Assembly (NCBI GenBank): GCA_026225255.1
Contig: JAMFSJ010000043.1
Coordinates: 23,597 to 87,596 of the forward strand
From: Methylacidimicrobium fagopyrum
GTDB taxonomy: Bacteria > Verrucomicrobiota > Verrucomicrobiia > Limisphaerales > UBA11358
Reading direction: 5' to 3'
DNA length: 64,000 bases
Part shown: positions 19,487 through 52,443 of the stretch, piece by piece
Layout of the letters: each line of letters opens with the position of its first letter
Position numbering within the stretch: the first letter of the stretch is position 1
Translations under genes and position numbers: made by a program
The notes under the pieces: model-generated
What the model was told of the DNA's origin: nothing
Databases searched by the model: none
Seen by the model: only the letters and a program-made list of their open reading frames with translations

Positions 19487-20746
19487 TTACCCGACAAACT
19501 TCTTGGCTGCAATCGTCGAGTTGTGGCCGCCAAAACCGAAGGAGTTATTGATGATGGCATCCACTTTCAGTTCCCGCGCAACGTTCGGGACGTAATCCAG
19601 ATCGCACTCGGGATCGGGCACTTGCAGGTTGATCGTCGGCGGCACAACGCCGTGTTTGATGGCCAGCGCACATACCGCGGTTTCCACGGCGCCGGCGGCG
19701 CCGAGCATGTGACCGGTCGCACCTTTGGTGGAACTGACGGCGAGTTTTTTGGCGTGTTCACCGAAAACCGTTTTGATCGCTTGCGTTTCCGCCACGTCAC
19801 CCACCGGGGTGGAAGTGCCGTGGGCGTTGACGTAACTGATGTCAGACGGATTTAAGCCTGCGCCGCGCAAGGCCATTTTCATGCTGCGACTCGCGCCTTC
19901 GCCACCGGGCGGCGGCGAGGTGAGATGATACGCGTCCGCGGTGTTGCCGTAACCGGCGATTTCGCAATAAATCTGGGCGCCACGCTTTTTGGCGTGTTCC
20001 AATTCTTCCAAAACGAGCACGCCAGCGCCTTCGCCCATCACGAAACCATCGCGTTCTTTATCGAACGGACGCGAGGCGTGTTTGGGGTCGTCATTGCGTG
20101 TGCTCATGGCGCGCATGGCGCAGAAACCGCCAATACCGACGGGCACAATGGTCGCTTCAGCACCGCCGGCAAACATCACTTGCGCGTCGCCCATCTTGAT
20201 CGTGCGCCAGGCTTCGCCGATGGCGTGATTTGCCGTCGCGCAAGCGGAGCAGGTCGCGAAGTTCGGTCCGCGCAAATTGAAATACATCGAGACGAGACCG
20301 GACGCCATGTTGGAGATCAACATGGGAATCATGAACGGCGACAACTTTTTCGGGCCGCGTTCGAGCAAAATTTTGTGTTGTTCGCCCGTCGTTTGCAGAC
20401 CGCCGATGCCGGAGCCGAGGAACACGCCGATTTCGTCGCAATTTTCTTGGGCAAGATCGAGGCCGGAATCTTTCAAAGCCGACCACGCCGCGTAAACGCC
20501 GAATTGCGAATAACGATCCGTGCGCCGGATTTCTTTCGGCGAGGGAAACGCGGGCGTCGGATCAAAATTTTTCACTTCCGCCGCCACCTGGGTGTCGAAA
20601 GGCGACGCGTCGAACGACGTGATTTTGTCCACGCCGCACTGGCCAGCGATCAGGTTTTTCCAGAACGTGTCCAGATCATTACCCAATGACGTGACGACGC
20701 CCATGCCCGTGACGACCACGCGGCGCTCGGTATAGTTATTTACCAT
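19487..20746 (-). CDS. fabF: Beta-ketoacyl-ACP synthase II
   Basis: RRVVVTGMGVVTSLG start, active-site region FATCSACATANHAIGEA, HGTSTPVGD and GHMLGAAG. Confidence 0.95.
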   Translation of the reverse strand: MVNNYTERRVVVTGMGVVTSLGNDLDTFWKNLIAGQCGVDKITSFDASPFDTQVAAEVKNFDPTPAFPSPKEIRRTDRYSQFGVYAAWSALKDSGLDLAQENCDEIGVFLGSGIGGLQTTGEQHKILLERGPKKLSPFMIPMLISNMASGLVSMYFNLRGPNFATCSACATANHAIGEAWRTIKMGDAQVMFAGGAEATIVPVGIGGFCAMRAMSTRNDDPKHASRPFDKERDGFVMGEGAGVLVLEELEHAKKRGAQIYCEIAGYGNTADAYHLTSPPPGGEGASRSMKMALRGAGLNPSDISYVNAHGTSTPVGDVAETQAIKTVFGEHAKKLAVSSTKGATGHMLGAAGAVETAVCALAIKHGVVPPTINLQVPDPECDLDYVPNVARELKVDAIINNSFGFGGHNSTIAAKKFVG

Positions 20747-20833: not shown

Positions 20834-21076
20834 TTACTTTTGAACTTCTTCGATGTATTTGGTCACATCGCCGACGCTCTGGAGCTTTTCAGCTTGTTCA
20901 TCCGGCACTTCGATGCCGAATTCTTCTTCCAAGGCCATCACCAGCTCAACGGTGTCGAGCGAGTCCGCGCCTAAATCTTCGATAAACTTGGCTTCCGGCG
21001 TCACTTGATCCGGTTTAACTCCGAGTTGTTCGACGATGATGTCTTTTACGCGTTGGTCAATAGGTTTGTCTGACAT
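20834..21076 (-). CDS. acpP: Acyl carrier protein
   Basis: 80 aa, with [20 protein letters not shown] containing the phosphopantetheine-attachment Ser. Confidence 0.95.
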
Positions 21077-21212: not shown

Positions 21213-21956
21213 TCACATCACCATGCCGCCATCCACCGTCAAAACTTGACCGGTGATGTAGCGGGCCGATGGACTGGCCAAAAATAATGCCGCGCTGGCG
21301 ATGTCATCCGCCGCCCCGAATTTGCCGAGCGGAATCTGGCGCAAAATATTCGCCTTCAATTCTTCGTTCAATTCCGACGTCATGTCCGTCTCGATGAAAC
21401 CAGGCGCAATCGCATTTGCCGTCACCCCGCGACCCGCCAATTCACGCGCGACCGATTGCGTGAACCCGATCAAACCGGCCTTGCTCGCCGCGTAGTTGGA
21501 TTGGCCTGGATTACCAATGAGGCCGATGACGGAAGAAATATTCAAAATGCGACCGGCGCGTTGTTTGGCGAACGTGCGGAAAAACGCGCGGGTGAAATGA
21601 AACGCGCCCTTGAGATTCGTGTTCAAAACCGTATCCCAATCCGCGTCACTCATGCGCATCAACAGGCCGTCGCGCGTCACGCCCGCGTTGTTCACGAGAA
21701 TGTCCACCTTGCCGCAATCGGCGATGATTTTATCGGCGGCGGCGGTCACGGCCGCGCCGTCCGAAACGTCCACAGCGAACGCCCACGCTTTACGCCCGAG
21801 CGCGCGGATTTCCGCCGCGACCTTCTCGGAATTTTCCTGCGTGCGCGAAACGACGACGACATCCGCGCCTTCATTGGCGAATTTCAAGGCGATGGCGCGA
21901 CCGATCCCGCGACCGGCACCCGTAACGACCGCAATTTGATTAGCTAGTTGACTCAT
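21213..21956 (-). CDS. fabG: 3-oxoacyl-ACP reductase
   Basis: VTGAGRGIGRAIA and YAASKAG motifs. I started at ATG 21956 (MSQLANQ...); the track's upstream extension is only the translation of the CACAGATG repeat. Confidence 0.95.
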   Translation of the reverse strand: MSQLANQIAVVTGAGRGIGRAIALKFANEGADVVVVSRTQENSEKVAAEIRALGRKAWAFAVDVSDGAAVTAAADKIIADCGKVDILVNNAGVTRDGLLMRMSDADWDTVLNTNLKGAFHFTRAFFRTFAKQRAGRILNISSVIGLIGNPGQSNYAASKAGLIGFTQSVARELAGRGVTANAIAPGFIETDMTSELNEELKANILRQIPLGKFGAADDIASAALFLASPSARYITGQVLTVDGGMVM

Positions 21957-21970
21957 AAAATTATTTTCAG

Positions 21971-22003
21971 CCACAGATGAAACACAGATGGAACACAGAT
22001 GAA
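21971..22003. repeat. CACAGATG-family repeat (3 units), downstream flank of the extra fab-operon ORF
   Basis: ccacagatgaaacacagatggaacacagatgaa, the same motif as the 23551 array. Confidence 0.9.
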
Positions 22004-22027
22004 AAGGAACAAATTTCTCTAAAAACA

Positions 22028-22534
22028 CTAATTTGCATTAATGATCCGCTCGGGATATTTGCGTGTGTAGCTAACCCAATATTCGAAAATTCCATTTTTC
22101 TTTCCTTCGAGAATTTTCCGCGCTTGTTCATTCAAAGGTTTGATTTCCTTCTCCAGCGCCGAATCGTGATACCACTTCGACCAATCCTTCATTCCCAGCG
22201 CATCCCAATATCGAAGCGCAATTTGAAAAGCGGCCTTGAAAATCATCGCCAATTGGGTTGCTCCCAATTCGTCAAGACCACGGATAGTTTCCTCAGCCAA
22301 AACGGGATTGTGCCAATTTCCAAAATGCCACCCCAAATCATCCATCGCCAAGGAAACATCCAATTCATAAGTCGCCGCCATGGCTCTCAAGCCAATCGGA
22401 AGCTTTTGAATTTCAGCCACAAATTCAAGCGATTCTCGGCTCACAGAAATTCGCCGCTCAAGTTCTTTCGCCAGCAACTCGAAGAGCTCATCATCCGAAC
22501 TGTCGGCGATTGCTTTCGGAGTAAGGCTGCTCAT
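22028..22534 (-). CDS. Hypothetical cytoplasmic protein inserted in the fab operon (possibly DMP19/DUF4375-like)
   Basis: 168-aa ORF between fabD and fabG on the same strand, visibly more AT-rich than its neighbours. The pattern LPIGLRAMAATYELDVSLAMDDLGWHFGNW...ETIRGLDELGA loosely resembles DUF4375-type proteins. That family call is tentative. Confidence 0.6.
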   Translation of the reverse strand: MSSLTPKAIADSSDDELFELLAKELERRISVSRESLEFVAEIQKLPIGLRAMAATYELDVSLAMDDLGWHFGNWHNPVLAEETIRGLDELGATQLAMIFKAAFQIALRYWDALGMKDWSKWYHDSALEKEIKPLNEQARKILEGKKNGIFEYWVSYTRKYPERIINAN

Positions 22535-22536
22535 TT

Positions 22537-22567
22537 ATCTGTGTTACATCTGTGAAAATCTGTGGCT
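22537..22567. repeat. CACAGATG-family repeat in inverted orientation, upstream flank of the extra ORF
   Basis: atctgtgttacatctgtgaaaatctgtggct. Its reverse complement is agccacagattttcacagatgtaacacagat. It overlaps the fabD stop codon. Confidence 0.9.
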
Positions 22568-23495
22568 AAATCGAAAGCGCCTTCACCGTGGCTTCCAAGC
22601 TCGCCGCGTCCGACACGTTCAACATCGTGGCCGTTTTATCAATGCGTTTCATGAAGCCGCTCAGGGCGGTGCCCGGGCCGAGCTCGATGAAGCGCGTGTA
22701 GCCTTGCGCCAGCAACGCGCGCATGGATTCTTCCCAACGCACCGAGGCGCAGACTTGTTCCACGAGCTTCGCAGAAATGTCCGTCGCGCTGCCGTGGGCT
22801 TGCGCGGTGACGTTGGAAATCACCGGCACAACGGGCGAAATCAAATTTACTTTGGCCAATTCCGCGCCCAGTTTCGGCTGCGCACTGGCCATCAGCGGCG
22901 AGTGATACGCGCCGGCGACGGACAACGGCAACGCGCGTTTTGCGCCTTTGGCTTTCGCCAGTTCACACGCCTTCGTGATTTTTTCCGCTTCGCCGGAAAT
23001 CACGAGTTGGCCGGGACAATTCAGATTCGCCAACACGACGCCAGCTTCCGCGCAAACTTCGCGCGTCGGCGCTTCGTCCAAGCCGATGATTGCCGCCATG
23101 CCGCCTTTGGTCACATCGCAGGCTTCCTGCATGAATTTCCCGCGCTGGCGGACGACGCGTAATCCGTCCTCAAAACTCAGCGCGCCCGCTGCCGTCAACG
23201 CCGTGAATTCGCCGAGCGACAAACCGGCGGTCGCGTCGAATTTCAGATTCGGCACCTGTTCCTTGAGCAATTGAAACGCCACCCAGCTTACGAGAAAAAT
23301 TCCCGGCTGCGCGTTTTCGGTCTTAGTCAGATCGGCTTCCGGCCCGTTGAAACAGATGCCGGCGAGATCATAGCCGAGCGCGGCGTTGGCGCGATCGAAC
23401 CACGCTTGGGCGCTCGGAAATTTTTCCGCCAAGTCTTTGCCCATGCCGACTACCTGTGCGCCTTGACCGGCAAATAAGAGTGCAGTTTTGCTCAT
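22566..23495 (-). CDS. fabD: Malonyl-CoA:ACP transacylase
   Basis: MSKTALLFAGQGAQ start and GLSLGEF active-site Ser motif. The track start 23507 is TTG; ATG 23495 is preferred. Confidence 0.95.
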   Translation of the reverse strand: MSKTALLFAGQGAQVVGMGKDLAEKFPSAQAWFDRANAALGYDLAGICFNGPEADLTKTENAQPGIFLVSWVAFQLLKEQVPNLKFDATAGLSLGEFTALTAAGALSFEDGLRVVRQRGKFMQEACDVTKGGMAAIIGLDEAPTREVCAEAGVVLANLNCPGQLVISGEAEKITKACELAKAKGAKRALPLSVAGAYHSPLMASAQPKLGAELAKVNLISPVVPVISNVTAQAHGSATDISAKLVEQVCASVRWEESMRALLAQGYTRFIELGPGTALSGFMKRIDKTATMLNVSDAASLEATVKALSI

Positions 23496-23550
23496 AGAGT
23501 CTGGCAATAGAACACGAATTTAGGCGGTAGAGAAAGACTGATTTTTAGCC

Positions 23551-23616
23551 ACAGATGAACACAGATGAACACAGATGAACACAGATGAACACAGATGAAC
23601 ACAGATGAAGACAGAC
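23551..23616. repeat. Tandem 10-bp repeat ACAGATGAAC (5 perfect units plus about 1.6 degenerate)
   Basis: Read directly: acagatgaac x5 (23551-23600), then acagatgaag and acagac. Preceded by agcc. Lies in the fabD/lysS divergent region. Confidence 0.95.
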
Positions 23617-23778
23617 ACGAATTAACCCGAATCCAAATCCGACAGGGTGCTTCATGAAAATCCGTGAAATCCGTATCAAAGTTCTTTTCCCCTCAGCTAT
23701 GTTCAGCGTGGTTCAGTTGAATTTCATTTCCGCGTGCAAACCCGCGCCGTTTCCGCTTTAATCTTAAACTCTGACTTT

Positions 23779-25242
23779 ATGGACGACACGAATTCATTGA
23801 TCGAACAGCGCAAGGCCAAGCTCAAATCGCTTGAAGCCAAAGGCATTTTTCCGTTCCAAAACAAATTCACGCCGGACAACCAATGCGCCGCCGCCCGCAG
23901 CGGGTTTGAATCCGGCGCGTTGCCGGAAGGTCAGCGCGTGTCCGTCGCCGGCCGCATCACGGCGCACCGCGACATGGGCAAATCCATGTTTATCGATGTG
24001 CGCGACCAGAGCGGACGCATCCAGGTTTACGCCCAGAAAAACACGCTCGGTGACGATTCGTTCGACATTTTCACGCACCTCGATCTCGGCGATTTCGTCG
24101 GCGTCACCGGCACGTTGTTCCGCACCAAAACCGGTGAACCGAGCATCAAACTGGAAGCGTTTACCATTCTCGCCAAATCGCTGCGTCCGCCGCCCGCGAA
24201 ATGGCATGGCTTGGAAGATACGGAAATCCGCTACCGCCAGCGCTATCTCGATTTGATCGCGAATCCCGATGTGAAAGACGTGATGCTCAAGCGCAGCGCG
24301 ATCATCCACGAGATCCGGAATTTTTTCCACGGTCGCGGCTATGTCGAAGTCGAAACGCCCGCGATGCAGGCGATTCCCGGCGGCGCAGCGGCACAACCGT
24401 TCAAGACCTTTCACAACGCGCTCGGCTGCGAATTTTATCTGCGCATCGCGCTTGAGTTGTATCACAAACGGCTCCTCGTTGGCGGCATTGATAAACTGTT
24501 CGAGATCGGCAAGAACTTCCGTAACGAAGGCCTTTCGCGCCGGCATAATCCGGAATTCACCATGCTTGAAGCGTATCAGGCGTTCGGCGATTACAACACG
24601 ATGATGGAAACGGTGGAATCGCTCATCACGACCATCGCGCAAAAAGTTTTGGGGACGTTGGTCATCGAACATAAGGACGCGGAGGGCAAAGTAACTAAGA
24701 CCATTGATCTCACACCGAAATGGCGCCGCGCAAAATACAACGATCTCATCAAGGAAAAGGCCGGTGCGGATTGGTTTGACGTGACGCCGGAAGTTCGTCG
24801 TCAACGCGCCCACGATCTGGGCGCAGAAATCGGCAAGGAATTTGAAGATTTTGAAGTCACGAACGCCGTGTTTTCAAAATTCATCGAACCGACGCTCATC
24901 CAGCCGACGTTCGTCACGCATCTGCCCAAGGAACTCGTGCCGCTCGCCAAACTATCGCCCGATGATCCGACGACGGTTGAAGTCTTTGAATGCTGCATCA
25001 ATGGCCAGGAAATTTCGCCAGGCTACACCGAGCAGAATGATCCGATCGCGCAACGCGCAACGCTGGAACATCAAGCCGGTGGCGAACAGCAGAAGCTCGA
25101 CGAAGATTTTCTTGTCGCGCTGGAACACGGCATGCCGCCCGCCGGCGGCATCGGCATCGGCATTGATCGCCTGTGCATGATGTTGCTCGGCCAGGAAAGC
25201 ATCCGCGACGTGATTCTATTCCCGCAGTTGAAGCCGAAATGA
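23779..25242 (+). CDS. lysS: Lysine--tRNA ligase, class II
   Basis: N-terminal OB-fold region and class II motifs (FRNEGLSRRHNPEFTMLE; GGIGIGIDRLCMMLLG). ATG 23779 (MDDTNSLIEQRKAKL) is preferred to the track start. Confidence 0.95.
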   Translation: MDDTNSLIEQRKAKLKSLEAKGIFPFQNKFTPDNQCAAARSGFESGALPEGQRVSVAGRITAHRDMGKSMFIDVRDQSGRIQVYAQKNTLGDDSFDIFTHLDLGDFVGVTGTLFRTKTGEPSIKLEAFTILAKSLRPPPAKWHGLEDTEIRYRQRYLDLIANPDVKDVMLKRSAIIHEIRNFFHGRGYVEVETPAMQAIPGGAAAQPFKTFHNALGCEFYLRIALELYHKRLLVGGIDKLFEIGKNFRNEGLSRRHNPEFTMLEAYQAFGDYNTMMETVESLITTIAQKVLGTLVIEHKDAEGKVTKTIDLTPKWRRAKYNDLIKEKAGADWFDVTPEVRRQRAHDLGAEIGKEFEDFEVTNAVFSKFIEPTLIQPTFVTHLPKELVPLAKLSPDDPTTVEVFECCINGQEISPGYTEQNDPIAQRATLEHQAGGEQQKLDEDFLVALEHGMPPAGGIGIGIDRLCMMLLGQESIRDVILFPQLKPK

Positions 25243-33475: not shown

Positions 33476-33630
33476 GGTGGCACAGGCCTCTGGCCTGTCG
33501 TTTCGGGCGTCCCGCCCGAAACCGTTTGTGGCATGAAAGATTTTAGGTTGGCGCGTGCCAAACAACTATGTAAGTCATAAACGAAATTCGGCGAGACGCC
33601 GGATTTTACAGGCGGGACGCCTGTGCCACC
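33476..33630. repeat. Inverted pair of hairpin elements between the ammonia-lyase and halogenase genes
   Basis: ggtggcacaggc (33476-87) and gcctgtgccacc (33619-30). Each is followed inward by an acaggc-N5-gcctgt hairpin with a different loop. Confidence 0.8.
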
Positions 33631-43577: not shown

Positions 43578-44468
43578 TCAAGGCTTCAATTCATTTCGTC
43601 GCAACAGCTCAGCGCCATAGCCCGCGCGAAAATCGCGAAATTGAAATGCGTATTTTAATTCCGTGCGTAACTTCGCATTGCTGATGCGCTTATTCGTCAC
43701 GCCGCGGCGACGTTCTAAATTCTCTGGTTTAGTGGGCGGCAGATTTTTATCGAGCGTCGCCGCCAGCCATTGAAAAAACTTCAACTGCGTCACCGGTTCG
43801 TTATCCACGGCGTTGTAAATTTCCCCGGGACGCCCGTGGGTCAAAGCCGCGATGATGCAACCGATCAAATCGTCGCGGTGAATCATGTTCAAAAACCGTG
43901 AGCCGTCGCCTTCGATCTGCGCCTGGCCTTTTAAAAATTGTTTGAACCAATGGCCGCGCTCTGGCCCGTAAATTCCCGCCACCCGCAAAATTACCGCCGG
44001 AAAATCCGTATCGGGCGAACGCCCGTTCGCCGCCGCGAGCAAAACATTTTCCGTCGCGACGAGAATTTTAGAAGTTTCTGCGTTTGGCTCGACCGGACTT
44101 TTTTCGGTCACGACGGAACCATCGTTTTGCCCATAAACACTCGTGCTGCTCGTATAAACAAATTTCTGCGGCGGATTGGGCGCGAGCCAGGTGATCAGAT
44201 TTTGCGTGCCCGCCAAATAGACTTGCCGGTAATTTTCCGCGTCGCCGCCCGCCGCGACGCAGTTGACCACCCAATCAAAATGGTTCGGGAGTTTTTTTAA
44301 TTCAGCCAACTGCGTTACGTCAGCGAATAACGGAGAAATTCCGGCAGCTTTTAATTCACTTTCCGCCGAAGCATTGCGCCGCAGCCCAAAAACTTCGTGC
44401 CCTTGGCGGACGAGTTCCGCTCCGAGTGGCAAACCAACGTAGCCGCAGCCGACGATTAAAACGCGCAT
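43578..44468 (-). CDS. NAD-dependent epimerase/dehydratase family (extended SDR) protein
   Basis: MRVLIVGCGYVGLPLGAELVRQGHEV Rossmann start. 296 aa. Confidence 0.8.
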   Translation of the reverse strand: MRVLIVGCGYVGLPLGAELVRQGHEVFGLRRNASAESELKAAGISPLFADVTQLAELKKLPNHFDWVVNCVAAGGDAENYRQVYLAGTQNLITWLAPNPPQKFVYTSSTSVYGQNDGSVVTEKSPVEPNAETSKILVATENVLLAAANGRSPDTDFPAVILRVAGIYGPERGHWFKQFLKGQAQIEGDGSRFLNMIHRDDLIGCIIAALTHGRPGEIYNAVDNEPVTQLKFFQWLAATLDKNLPPTKPENLERRRGVTNKRISNAKLRTELKYAFQFRDFRAGYGAELLRRNELKP

Positions 44469-44474
44469 GAGGAG

Positions 44475-44547
44475 ATTAAATAAGGAAAGCAGGAAAGCAG
44501 GAATAAAAATCCGTTGTTTTCCTGCTTTCCTGCTTTCCTTATTTAAT
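44475..44547. terminator. Perfect 29-bp-stem hairpin (AGGAAAGCAGGA family), copy 1
   Basis: attaaataaggaaagcaggaaagcaggaa (44475-44503) pairs perfectly with ttcctgctttcctgctttccttatttaat (44519-44547). 15-nt loop. Confidence 0.7.
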
Positions 44548-44557
44548 ACTTAATCCA

Positions 44558-44665
44558 TCAACGCGCCGAAGCGCAGTTCTTTGTAAAAACTTCGTGCCCT
44601 TGGCGGACGAGTTCCGCTCCGAGTGGCAAACCAACGTAGCCGCAGCCAACGATTAAAACGCGCAT
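44558..44665 (-). pseudogene. Duplicated 5' fragment of the SDR epimerase gene (35-codon remnant)
   Basis: It encodes MRVLIVGCGYVGLPLGAELVRQGHEVF, identical to the first 27 aa of 43578-44468, then runs into a ppx 3'-end fragment and stops. It is part of the 197-bp tandem duplication. Confidence 0.7.
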
Positions 44666-44678
44666 GAGGAGATTAATT

Positions 44679-44741
44679 ATAAGGAAAGCAGGAAAGCAGG
44701 AATAAAAATCCGTTGTTTTCCTGCCTTCCTGCTTTCCTCAT
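44679..44741. terminator. Hairpin copy 2, immediately downstream of ppx (2 stem mismatches)
   Basis: Same arms as copy 1, but T to C at 44725 and 44739 breaks two pairs. It lies 8 nt from the ppx stop. Confidence 0.6.
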
Positions 44742-44748
44742 TTAATAC

Positions 44749-45690
44749 TTAATCCATCAACGCCGCAAAGCGCAGGCCGCGCGTGCTGATGCGCAGTTCT
44801 TTGAAGCCGAATTCTTCCATGACCGCCTCGTAAATAATCACGCCGGTGAGAATGACATCCGCGCGCATTTTCGGCAGTCCGATGATTTCCTTACGCGCCG
44901 CCAGGGGTAATTTCCACAAACTCTTCCGGCGCGACTGCACCTGTTCAAAATTCAAAACCGTGCGTTCGATTTTCGCGCGATCAAAGCGATCCAGTTTATT
45001 TTCCACGCGCGCGAGAATGCTCGTGGTGCCACCGGTGCCAACGAGGCGGATTTCGCCGGTTTCGCTCTGCAACGCCGGTTCCAATAGCGGACGCACTTTG
45101 TAGTGCAAAAATTCTTTCAGCCATTCGTGGCAGTGCGCAAATTCATCCGGCGTCGGGGGATCGCCGTGCGGAAATTTTTCCAACAAGCGAACGGTGCCCA
45201 GCGGAAAGCTATGCGCGAAACTTTTTTTCTTGCCGTGACCCAAAATAAATTCCGTGCTGCCGCCGCCGACATCGAGTAAGAGCAACGGCTGTTTCGCGAG
45301 TTCGAGGTCGCTGGTCACACCTTGAAACGCCCATTCGGCTTCGCGCCCGCCGGTGATGATTTCGGTTTTCAGACCGGAAGCGCGCTCGATGGCGTTCGTC
45401 AAATCGCGTGGATTGATCGCGTCGCGCGCGGCGCTGGTGGCGATCACGCGGATACTGTCCGCATTGCGTTCGCGCGCGATTTCGCCAAATTCCCAAACCG
45501 CTTCGGCTGTGCGCGCGATACTTTCCGGTTGGAGTTGATGCGTTTCGTAAAATCCTTTGCCCAGCCGCGTCTGCCGACTTTCTTCATGCACCGGCGTCAC
45601 ATCGCGACCACGCACGTCCGCCACCAACAACTTAATCGAGTTGGTGCCGACATCAATAACCGCGCGGCGAATGCTCCCAAGATGGCCCAT
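44749..45690 (-). CDS. ppx: Exopolyphosphatase / guanosine pentaphosphate phosphohydrolase family (Ppx/GppA)
   Basis: VIDVGTNSIKLLVA and LLLDVGGGSTEF ASKHA-fold motifs. ATG 45690 is preferred; the track's N-terminal extension has no support. Confidence 0.85.
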   Translation of the reverse strand: MGHLGSIRRAVIDVGTNSIKLLVADVRGRDVTPVHEESRQTRLGKGFYETHQLQPESIARTAEAVWEFGEIARERNADSIRVIATSAARDAINPRDLTNAIERASGLKTEIITGGREAEWAFQGVTSDLELAKQPLLLLDVGGGSTEFILGHGKKKSFAHSFPLGTVRLLEKFPHGDPPTPDEFAHCHEWLKEFLHYKVRPLLEPALQSETGEIRLVGTGGTTSILARVENKLDRFDRAKIERTVLNFEQVQSRRKSLWKLPLAARKEIIGLPKMRADVILTGVIIYEAVMEEFGFKELRISTRGLRFAALMD

Positions 45691-51343: not shown

Positions 51344-51352
51344 TGGAAAAAT

Positions 51353-51390
51353 TTAACCACAAATGAAAACGGATAAAAAGGATGAAGGTG
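51353..51390. repeat. TTAACCAC-anchored phased A-rich element next to the MBL hydrolase start
   Basis: ttaaccac aaatgaaaac ggataaaaag gatgaaggtg. The 8-mer lies exactly 9 nt from the GTG start (minus strand). Confidence 0.75.
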
Positions 51391-51540
51391 GAATTATGAT
51401 GAATTAAAAACGCCCGCGCACGCGCCGGTATGCGGTGGCCAGTTCTTGCAACGATGAACCCACGGAATTATCGATCGACCCAAACGAACGCGCATGCAGG
51501 AAAGCGGCGGTTCGCGTTTTATCCGTGGTTATTTTTTATT

Positions 51541-51570
51541 TTTCGTGTCTTTCATGTCTTTCGTGGTTAA
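51541..51570. repeat. Mirror copy: phased repeat ending GTGGTTAA, 9 nt before the mtnP ATG
   Basis: tttcgt gtctttcat gtctttcgt ggttaa (9-bp period), then aaatttccc-ATG. Confidence 0.75.
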
Positions 51571-51579
51571 AAATTTCCC

Positions 51580-52443
51580 ATGTCAAAATACAAGGTCGGC
51601 ATCATCGGCGGCAGCGGGTTGTATCACATCGAGGGTTTTACTAACCAGAAATGGGTGAAAGTCAAAACGCCTTTCGGGGCGCCATCCGATGAATTTCTCA
51701 CCGGCACACTCGCCGGACGCGAAGTCGTTTTTCTCCCGCGCCACGGCCGCGGTCATCGTGTTTTGCCGAGCGAGTTGAATCATCGCGCGAATATGTGGGC
51801 GATGAAAAAACTCGGCGTCGCGTGGATCATCAGCGTTAGCGCCGTCGGTTCCCTGCAAATAAAATACGCGCCGTGCGACATCGTTTTGCCCGATCAATTT
51901 CTCGACCGCACCAAGCGTGATTTTGAACACACCTTTTTCGGCCGCGGCATCGTCGGCCACATCGCGTTCGCCGATCCGATCTGCGAAGAGTTGCGGCAAA
52001 TCATTTTGAAAAGCGCGCGCAGCCTGAAGGCGAAAGTCCACGATGGCGGCACTTATGTGAATATGGAAGGTCCGGCATTCAGCACGCGCGCCGAATCTAC
52101 GACCAATCACAAGCTCGGCTACGATGTCATCGGCATGACCAATTTGGGCGAAGCCAAATGCGCCCGCGAAGCCGAGATCGCCTACGCCACCATGGCGATG
52201 ATCACCGATTATGATTGTTGGAAAGTGGACGAAGCGCATGTGACTGTTGAAATGGTGATCGCCAACCTGACGAAAAATGCGGCGACCGCCAAAGCCATCG
52301 TCGCCAAAGTTATTCCGCAAATTCCCACCGAACCGACGTGGTCGTGTCACAGCGCCTTGAAAAACGCCATCATGACCGACCGCAAAGTGTGGCCGAAGAA
52401 AACCATCGCCGAATTGAAGCCGATTATTGCGAAATATTTGTAA
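51580..52443 (+). CDS. mtnP: S-methyl-5'-thioadenosine phosphorylase
   Basis: VGIIGGSGLY, FLPRHGRGH and GMTNLGEAKCAREAEI are typical of the MTAP/PNP family. Confidence 0.9.
   Translation: MSKYKVGIIGGSGLYHIEGFTNQKWVKVKTPFGAPSDEFLTGTLAGREVVFLPRHGRGHRVLPSELNHRANMWAMKKLGVAWIISVSAVGSLQIKYAPCDIVLPDQFLDRTKRDFEHTFFGRGIVGHIAFADPICEELRQIILKSARSLKAKVHDGGTYVNMEGPAFSTRAESTTNHKLGYDVIGMTNLGEAKCAREAEIAYATMAMITDYDCWKVDEAHVTVEMVIANLTKNAATAKAIVAKVIPQIPTEPTWSCHSALKNAIMTDRKVWPKKTIAELKPIIAKYL

Follow-up and report, generated by a model that had tools for sequence, protein, structure and literature searches.

In a 64-kb stretch of Methylacidimicrobium fagopyrum DNA (the window; all positions are window positions), we found the fatty-acid synthesis genes fabD and fabG to be separated by what is probably a promoterless one-gene cassette, with a DMP19-like open reading frame (ORF) lying in the loop of a hairpin-forming inverted-repeat scaffold that belongs to a palindromic intergenic family similar to miniature inverted-repeat transposable elements (MITEs) and to the intervening sequences (IVSs) of rRNA. 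We consider the cassette mobile over evolutionary time, by a mechanism that we infer. The ORF encodes 168 amino acids and occupies 22534..22028 on the minus strand. An earlier note on this DNA had described an AT-richer ORF on the same strand as the two genes, with inverted flanks sharing three matching blocks; the coordinates and the base composition agree with the first observation, and sequence reading and two repeat finders agree with the second. The features of the locus are as follows.

22566..23507, minus strand: fabD (malonyl-CoA:ACP transacylase), upstream host gene; PF00698, E = 1.5e-37.
21966-22569, minus strand: cassette, consisting of the arms and the DMP19-like ORF, from sequence reading.
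22535..22569, minus strand: 5′ arm, TTAGCCACAGAT-TTT-CACAGAT-GTAA-CACAGAT-AA, ending directly at the ATG of the ORF (22534).
22028..22534, minus strand: cargo gene for a 168-aa DMP19-like (PF14300) protein, all-helical, with an isoelectric point (pI) of 5.2 and AT-richer than the operon.
22002..22016, minus strand: scaffold motif AAATTTGTTCCTTTT, between the cargo stop codon and the 3′ arm.
21966..22001, minus strand: 3′ arm, reading TTCAGCCACAGAT-GAAA-CACAGAT-GGAA-CACAGATG on the plus strand and ending 9 nt ahead of the fabG ATG.
21213..21956, minus strand: fabG (3-oxoacyl-ACP reductase), downstream host gene; PF13561 / PF00106, ATG at 21956.
20834..21076, minus strand: acpP, from the ORF list.
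19487..20746, minus strand: fabF, from the ORF list.

Each arm comprises three CACAGAT units placed 10–11 nt apart, and the two arms, ~33 nt each, are inverted relative to one another. After the fabD stop codon, the minus strand reads GCCACAGAT-TTT-CACAGATG-T-AACACAGAT-AA, followed by the ATG at 22534; written out, the junction is TAG-CCACAGAT-TTT-CACAGAT-GTAA-CACAGAT-AA-ATG, and the TAG within the 5′ arm (22568-22566) is the stop codon of fabD itself. On the plus strand, positions 21970-22001 read GCCACAGAT-GAAA-CACAGATG-G-AACACAGATG, and the cassette termini take the form TTAGCC...GGCTRAA. Both arms were recovered independently by an inverted-repeat finder and a tandem-repeat finder, the latter reporting the 3′ arm as three copies with a period of 11. 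The word CACAGATG has 10 copies in the 64 kb against 1.25 expected, a number reached in 0 of 100 shuffles, and all ten are confined to the fab locus. The cargo ORF has a GC content of 46.4%, and of 49.7% at third codon positions (GC3), versus 58–59% and ~70%, respectively, for fabD, fabG, and fabF. Promoter and terminator scans returned sites no more often than in shuffled sequences and none on the coding (minus) strand. A 192-aa ORF on the plus strand (21977-22555) spans the whole cassette and starts inside the 3′ arm (ATGAAACACAGATGG...); it is an antisense shadow and not a gene. The arm units repeat CACA at a spacing of 10–11 bp, and the arm terminus TTAGCCACA (22562-22570 on the minus strand and 23545-23553 on the plus strand) is one position off TTATCCACA, which we take to be the DnaA-box consensus.

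In related Limisphaerales (an assignment taken from the names of ThiG homologues), the arms together with the ORF were found at three junctions. The fabD–fabG cassette is shared, as in the window, by loci L003, L146, L151, L206, L207, and L209; in L002 the cassette lies between thiG and pfkB, and the DNA that this locus has in common with the window is the cassette only (84% identity over 585 bp). A third junction is seen in L210 and L211, where the arms are TTAACCACAGATGGACACAGATGAACACAGAT, written TTAACCACAGAT-GGA-CACAGAT-GAA-CACAGAT. The 5′ arm of the window was also found in L002, L003, L146, L151, L206, and L209, and cargo homologues at 76% identity or more carry the arms. The copy at the thiG site is nearest to a fab-site copy, with a synonymous divergence (dS) of 0.20 to L146. 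The recurrence of arms and ORF at three unrelated junctions bears out the suggestion of the earlier note that the flanks are the terminal inverted repeats of a cassette. An assembly artefact is ruled out, as assemblies made independently (JGI, ENA, NCBI, and Logan) contain the cassette as well.

We surveyed the fab site in 80 metagenomic loci with FabD 79–94% identical and found the fabD–fabG spacer to vary from 17 nt to >2 kb. At 13 of these loci, both arms surround a loop of ~18 nt (AAAATTTGYTNCTTTGA) and no ORF, and the predicted folding energy of such empty hairpins is –32 to –37.5 kcal/mol (z = –5 to –8). The DMP19 ORF was present in 2 of the 80 loci, besides the window and L003, L206, L207, and L209. 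Other loops between the fab-site arms contain, ahead of the loop motif, a DUF6572 ORF (30.2 bits), a 131-aa or a 106-aa membrane-type ORF, or an 89-aa ORF. The loop of the ORF-less hairpins is the scaffold motif of the window, which also lies 3′ of every alternative cargo at fabD–fabG, and close relatives by fabG differ in their cargo state. At thiG–pfkB, the arms of relatives with 93% ThiG identity are the same, and a nested CGCAGAT hairpin takes the place of the ORF. In L002, the loop motif at this site is that of the fab site and the 3′ arm is one unit shorter, which is what a crossover between arm units out of register would be expected to leave. In Limisphaerales, the scaffold is retained at both fabD–fabG and thiG–pfkB while the loop content changes, a pattern from which we infer that cargo may spread between resident scaffolds by recombination in the arms. 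The comparison of fab operons proposed in the earlier note thus revealed sites where the ORF is present, absent, or replaced, as well as arms-only sites. Its reading holds with a qualification: the arms do bracket the ORF, but they are not private to it, being members of a widespread and mostly ORF-less hairpin family, and at fabD–fabG they occur in relatives without an ORF or with other ORFs.

Further palindromes are nested in some scaffolds. The thiG–pfkB spacer of L255-L258 (e.g., L255 856-1027) contains a CGCAGAT hairpin inside the loop of a CACAGAT hairpin, and in L090 a small unrelated palindrome is nested within a 5′ arm. From these cases, hairpin loops and arms seem to be preferred landing sites for palindromic elements.

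To describe the arm family at large, we searched species-representative genomes with a pattern that demanded the terminus and two units, in total 17 specified bases; the figures given here apply among the matches listed. The arm consensus, TTAGCCACAGAT-GAA-CACAGAT-GAA-CACAGAT, was found in many phyla and on viral contigs. The raw count of matches, which is at least the number listed, is near the chance expectation for 17 specified bases. We regard the matches as real because the third unit is kept at 61–75% per position (125 ends) although it was no part of the pattern, TT precedes the terminus in 61–72% of the ends, and 68 ends have an inverted partner (at least 68 inverted pairs of ends, mostly 53–250 bp). 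The hosts include Acidobacteriota, Verrucomicrobiota, Planctomycetota, Chloroflexota, Balneolales, Proteobacteria, and Cyanobacteriota; matches in isolate genomes come from Herpetosiphon (including the complete Herpetosiphon aurantiacus), Fodinibius, and Nevskia, and a further 39 stretches with arms lie on IMG/VR viral contigs. In total, the arms are known from >150 loci, with several copies per genome. Most members of the family are ORF-less palindromes of 50–250 bp, and a minority contain one small ORF. The elements lie between co-directional (27), divergent (8), and convergent (7) genes; given these contexts of every orientation and the absence of a U-tract, a role as terminators was rejected. 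TA was seen at both ends in 21 of 76 pairs, which is uninformative because TA is self-complementary and indistinguishable from an extension of the palindrome. An Rfam scan of 21800-23800 at E-values of 10 or below gave chance-level matches, none of them on the arms, and literature searches by arm sequence, read-through peptide, and family names returned no description of the element; the relevant finds were the paper on the Coxiella IVS and a single table line on PDDEXK_3.

Several members of the family show unusual arrangements. On viral contig L215 (3260-10960), a family hairpin follows almost every gene of a co-directional array, and CGCAGAT-type changes in the 3′ arms lead to A–C mismatches on the sense strand. 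L116 (800-5190) has dense arrays of mixed CACAGAT and CACGGAT arms in a single orientation. Long tandem arrays of the 10-mers AGCCACAGAT, AGCCACGGAT, and AGCCACAAGT, in which the terminus itself is repeated, occur in L226 (14464-14631) and L233 (3620-3900), two IMG/VR contigs from one sample. Read-through of the hairpins produces spurious ORFs that start with MNTDE... or MNTDK... and contain ...SVFICVHLWL... (e.g., L043 7623, L051, L073); protein databases probably contain such arm-derived peptides under the name of "hypothetical proteins."

The single cargo recurring across phyla was PF13366 PDDEXK_3 (E = 1e-25 to 1e-40), which equals TIGR04256 GxxExxY. In one case, the PDDEXK_3 cassette lies directly after nuoD and the TAG of the arm is the nuoD stop codon, in parallel to fabD here. 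PDDEXK_3 genes were also found between arms of the same design made of other units, CACGAAARG and CGCGAAAAG, with TTAACC-type termini, and a scan of viral contigs for PDDEXK_3 loci found one locus. In FabD relatives L133 and L173, a cassette of this design sits right after fabF and encodes a four-helix-bundle protein of the PF05635 23S_rRNA_IVP / TIGR02436 family (118.6 bits). The coordinates of the two IVP cassettes are as follows.

L133 4837-5250: IVP cassette with inverted arms of GGGTTCAG/GGGTTTAG units; the ATG of the next gene abuts the 3′ arm.
L173 5096-5515: IVP cassette with inverted arms of the same units; the ATG of the next gene abuts the 3′ arm.

Ahead of the IVP ORF of L133 lies an empty hairpin of GGGTTCAG/GGGTTTAG units. 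In 11 of 11 cassettes, the cargo ORF is co-oriented with the upstream host gene, with gaps of 0–58 nt; as the coding strand of the window cassette has no promoter-like site either, the cassettes are taken to be expressed by read-through.

The cargo ORF of the window is a real gene. It has 354 homologues with many invariant residues, and a ratio of nonsynonymous to synonymous divergence (dN/dS) of 0.10–0.33 among eight cassette copies indicates purifying selection. A hidden Markov model search matched residues 44-139 to PF14300 (DMP19) with 29.9 bits versus the Pfam gathering score of 25. An AlphaFold (AF2) model built from 27 sequences is all-helical, with a predicted local distance difference test score (pLDDT) of 92.7; its best fold match in the Protein Data Bank (PDB) is DMP19 (3wur), the sole one with a template modeling (TM) score >0.3 (0.48–0.58), with a weak Foldseek E-value of 1.4–2.6. 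The Pfam match, from the kind of search that the earlier note had advised, bears out the resemblance to DMP19/DUF4375 proteins that it had offered tentatively. A sequence-profile search of the PDB and an NCBIfam search gave no match to the cargo, and the PADLOC defence models matched neither the cargo nor PDDEXK_3. The protein is mildly acidic (pI 5.17; 27 D+E versus 21 K+R). Its homologues at 61–68% identity are without arms; their neighbors are toxin–antitoxin genes or a row of small ORFs, in which a T6SS_Tdi1_C immunity-type domain is encoded. By analogy with DMP19 and with these immunity-like neighbors, the cargo protein is most likely a protein-binding inhibitor or an immunity-type factor. 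Further small immunity-like genes were seen in or beside the same operons of relatives, among them a Barstar-like ORF after fabF (contig of P0016), and a DUF6573 ORF follows thiG beside a truncated 5′ arm (L254 3455-3856).

The earlier note had also envisaged a long-range stem in the mRNA enclosing the whole ORF. This is what the folding predicts: for a 636-nt transcript, both the minimum free energy (MFE) and the centroid structure pair the arms around the ORF (z = –3.8). The cargo would be transcribed by read-through from fabD, and in the message the arms may pair into a stem of ~30 bp with interruptions. This stem could be a target of RNase III, which cuts the IVSs of 23S rRNA in this way. 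Such a cut would split the fabD message from that of fabG-acpP-fabF. As the architecture is that of the Coxiella IVS and the arms are predicted to pair, RNase III processing between fabD and fabG appears a reasonable expectation by analogy. At the DNA level, we suggest that cargo moves between resident scaffolds through recombination in the repeated arm units; alternatively, an arm-recognizing nuclease or transposase might move it.

Several observations weigh against this account of a mobile cassette that is processed in the mRNA. The dS of the cassette to the window (0.62–1.02) equals that of fabG (0.74–1.05), so the cassette at fabD–fabG is old and mostly vertically inherited, and movement is rare or ancient. 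The earlier note had counted conservation at this position against a cassette; the matching divergences agree with that in part and do not refute mobility. The proposed spread by arm recombination builds on one comparison of filled with unfilled sites. A search for a mobility enzyme identified none, and the 64-kb window contains no PDDEXK_3 gene. In a limited sample of ~160 loci, neither the space between paired arms (up to 2.5 kb) nor the surroundings of solo arms contained a transposase-like ORF. Direct flanking repeats of at least 3 bp were seen in 0–2 of 76 pairs, so no target duplication of this length was evident. The stability of the RNA showed no bias toward the sense strand among short elements (11 versus 15, p = 0.15). 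With no such bias and with elements in every gene orientation, the family as a whole appears to consist of DNA palindromes and not of selected mRNA structures; we therefore dropped the idea that it is primarily an mRNA structure, and a role at the RNA level is not supported for the hairpin family as a whole.

Could the locus instead be the product of a classical non-autonomous transposon, akin to mobile insertion cassettes (MICs) or MITEs? The CACAGAT units would then bind a transposase encoded elsewhere, e.g., a TA-duplicating IS630/Tc1-like enzyme, and each site would be an independent cut-and-paste insertion. Terminal inverted repeats with sub-repeats at helical spacing, several copies per genome across many phyla and on viral contigs, TA at both ends of 21 of the 76 pairs, and the lack of strand bias in short elements, as for DNA-level repeats, would all suit such an origin. 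We nevertheless consider it unlikely. The ~160 loci contained no transposase-like ORF between or beside the arms, the pairs have no direct repeat of 3 bp or more, and their TA is indistinguishable from palindrome extension; moreover, repeated independent insertion leaves unexplained why the arms have other loop contents at two independent junctions, and the repeat units vary widely among elements of the same design.

Another possibility, which we regard as quite improbable, is a selfish element whose autonomous form is the PDDEXK_3/GxxExxY cassette. Its PD-(D/E)XK protein of ~125 aa would cut the arm hairpin or cruciform, or an unoccupied scaffold, and repair would copy the element in, as in homing. 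The remaining ORFs, DMP19-like and IVP among them, would be cargo, either captured or alternative, and would need the nuclease in trans. As the sole cross-phylum cargo, PDDEXK_3 makes up 6–7 of the ~12 ORF-bearing elements versus ~70 empty ones, a ratio typical of autonomous and non-autonomous forms, and three unit types of the same design flank its genes. Multiple transfers between bacterial divisions and archaea are noted in a published survey of the PDDEXK_3 family (PMC3424549), which fits the proposal. Against it stand the window without a PDDEXK_3 gene and the IVP and DMP19 cassettes without the nuclease. Finally, it is very improbable that the arms are an immobile, REP-like host hairpin setting the processing or stability of the fabD/fabG mRNA, with the ORF as a vertically inherited accessory gene: the cassette has the dS of fabG, its 3′ arm always ends 8–12 nt before the next ATG with an A/T-rich leader in between, strong hairpins are predicted, and other tandem-unit hairpins of the window lie just upstream of start codons, but arms and ORF recur at three unrelated junctions, the loop content turns over among close relatives, near-identical arms exist in unrelated phyla and viral contigs, elements also lie between convergent and divergent genes, the sense strand has no stability bias, and the ORF retains a foreign composition.

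The promoterless cassette is not the only structure of its kind in the window. The earlier note had overlooked a third array upstream of fabD.

23545-23615, plus strand: solo expanded arm, TTAGCC(ACAGATGAAC)x6.6, between fabD and lysS, ~45 nt upstream of the fabD ATG.

This array consists of 6.6 tandem CACAGATGAA units (period 10, 98% matches) and has the same TTAGCC terminus as the cassette. A weak, decayed partner (ATCCGTGAAATCCGTA) may lie at 23650-23675, but it is not convincing, and the array as a complete hairpin was rejected because its folding was not significant (z = –0.9); the array resembles a hairpin that has decayed and in which slippage has lengthened one arm. Elsewhere in the window (region 44388-44775, with hairpins at 44475-44547 and 44679-44746), a gene start is preceded, at a distance of 14 nt, by a perfect 29-bp hairpin (–46.4 kcal/mol, z = –8.9) whose arms are tandem AGGAAAGC units. 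A 199-bp tandem repeat duplicates this hairpin together with the first ~80 nt of the gene (43578..44468, minus strand). An element at 51345-51578 has TTTAACCAC...GTGGTTAAA termini, a degenerate 5′ arm, and a 3′ arm of CACGAAAGA-type units that ends 3 nt before the ATG at 51581. Other unit types were seen at the same junctions in relatives, and these varied units together with the hairpins upstream of start codons at 44475-44547, 44679-44746, and 51345-51578 suggest that tandem-unit hairpins form a broader class. A 155-bp compound palindrome at 33476-33630 (GGTGGCACAGGCC...) belongs to a separate repeat family, which fills the fabD–fabG spacer in relatives L142 and L186.

These findings invite a wider, tentative proposal. 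It is possible, though we would not expect it, that IVSs, the many-copy GxxExxY/PDDEXK_3 genes, the IVP "four helix bundle" genes, and the present cargo cassettes form one unrecognized cross-phylum superfamily of selfish hairpin cassettes. Such elements would share arms of tandem 7–11-nt units and termini TTA-RCC-RC...GY-GGY-TAA, and would sit in rRNA or, in highly expressed operons, shortly ahead of start codons. Either a small PD-(D/E)XK nuclease with specificity for structure or arm recombination would spread them, and they could capture immunity-type genes. GxxExxY/PDDEXK_3 and 23S_rRNA_IVP are very abundant families, and the locus ties them and the IVSs to one cassette design that has interchangeable cargo and cross-phylum arms and is also found in ordinary operons. 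The arms account for small "extra" genes inside core operons, and the arm sequences, with their filled and unfilled sites, provide substrates for testing both the movement of such elements and the processing of operon mRNAs.

Compared with known systems, the element is akin both to IVSs and to MITEs or mobile insertion cassettes yet departs from each in its defining tests. The Correia (nemis) MITEs of Neisseria are short intergenic palindromes of 50–250 bp with terminal inverted repeats and TA ends, present in many copies and often co-transcribed, as is the arm family; in mRNA they fold into substrates of RNase III. Correia elements are known from a single genus and are not known to carry an ORF, whereas the arms here, made up of tandem units, are spread over many phyla and can enclose a gene. 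Mobile insertion cassettes (e.g., MIC231 of Bacillus cereus) carry a passenger gene and no transposase between the inverted repeats of a known insertion sequence (IS231) and have target duplications. The present cassette shares the transposase-less passenger gene bounded by inverted repeats but neither a cognate insertion sequence nor a duplication was found for it. The REPIN/REP elements of repetitive extragenic palindromes (REPs), associated with REP-associated tyrosine transposases (RAYTs), are likewise non-autonomous intergenic hairpins of ~100 nt with two inverted copies, but the REP unit is a short, species-specific palindrome, whereas the arms here are direct tandem units shared by many phyla, and we noticed no RAYT-type gene among the loci examined. 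Integron cassettes have in common with the present one a promoterless single gene in fixed orientation to external transcription, an exchangeable cargo at a fixed site, and an imperfect inverted repeat that forms a hairpin. They differ in that the ORF lies inside the hairpin here and not beside an attC site. The arm sequences read contained no RYYYAAC/GTTRRRY core sites, and we found no intI or attI and no cassette array; a XerC/D-like integrase is present upstream of fabD in some relatives, not in the window.

The likeness to the 23S rRNA IVSs of Coxiella, Leptospira, and Brucella extends to several features. In both, a small ORF lies within terminal complementary sequences that form a stem of ~28–30 bp, the element is 0.4–0.6 kb long, and it lacks its own promoter and points the same way as a strongly transcribed host unit. 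In Coxiella burnetii, RNase III cuts out an IVS of 428–444 nt whose ends form a 28-bp stem; three GACAGAT heptamers in tandem stand immediately ahead of its IVP ORF (PMC4990558). Three tandem heptamers likewise stand directly before the start codon here, CACAGAT in place of GACAGAT, and in relatives of the window, fabF is followed by a cassette built on the same design that holds a PF05635 IVP gene. The differences are that the present cassette lies in a protein-coding operon (fabD–fabG) and not in helix 25 or 45 of 23S rRNA, that its cargo is PF14300 and not PF05635, that its units are 10–11 nt apart while the IVS heptamers are contiguous, and that RNase III excision, shown for the IVS, is for the cassette an expectation. 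The origin and mobility of ORF-bearing 23S rRNA IVSs have been a puzzle since the early 1990s (PMC4990558), and the same design carrying IVP proteins makes the origin of these intervening sequences testable.

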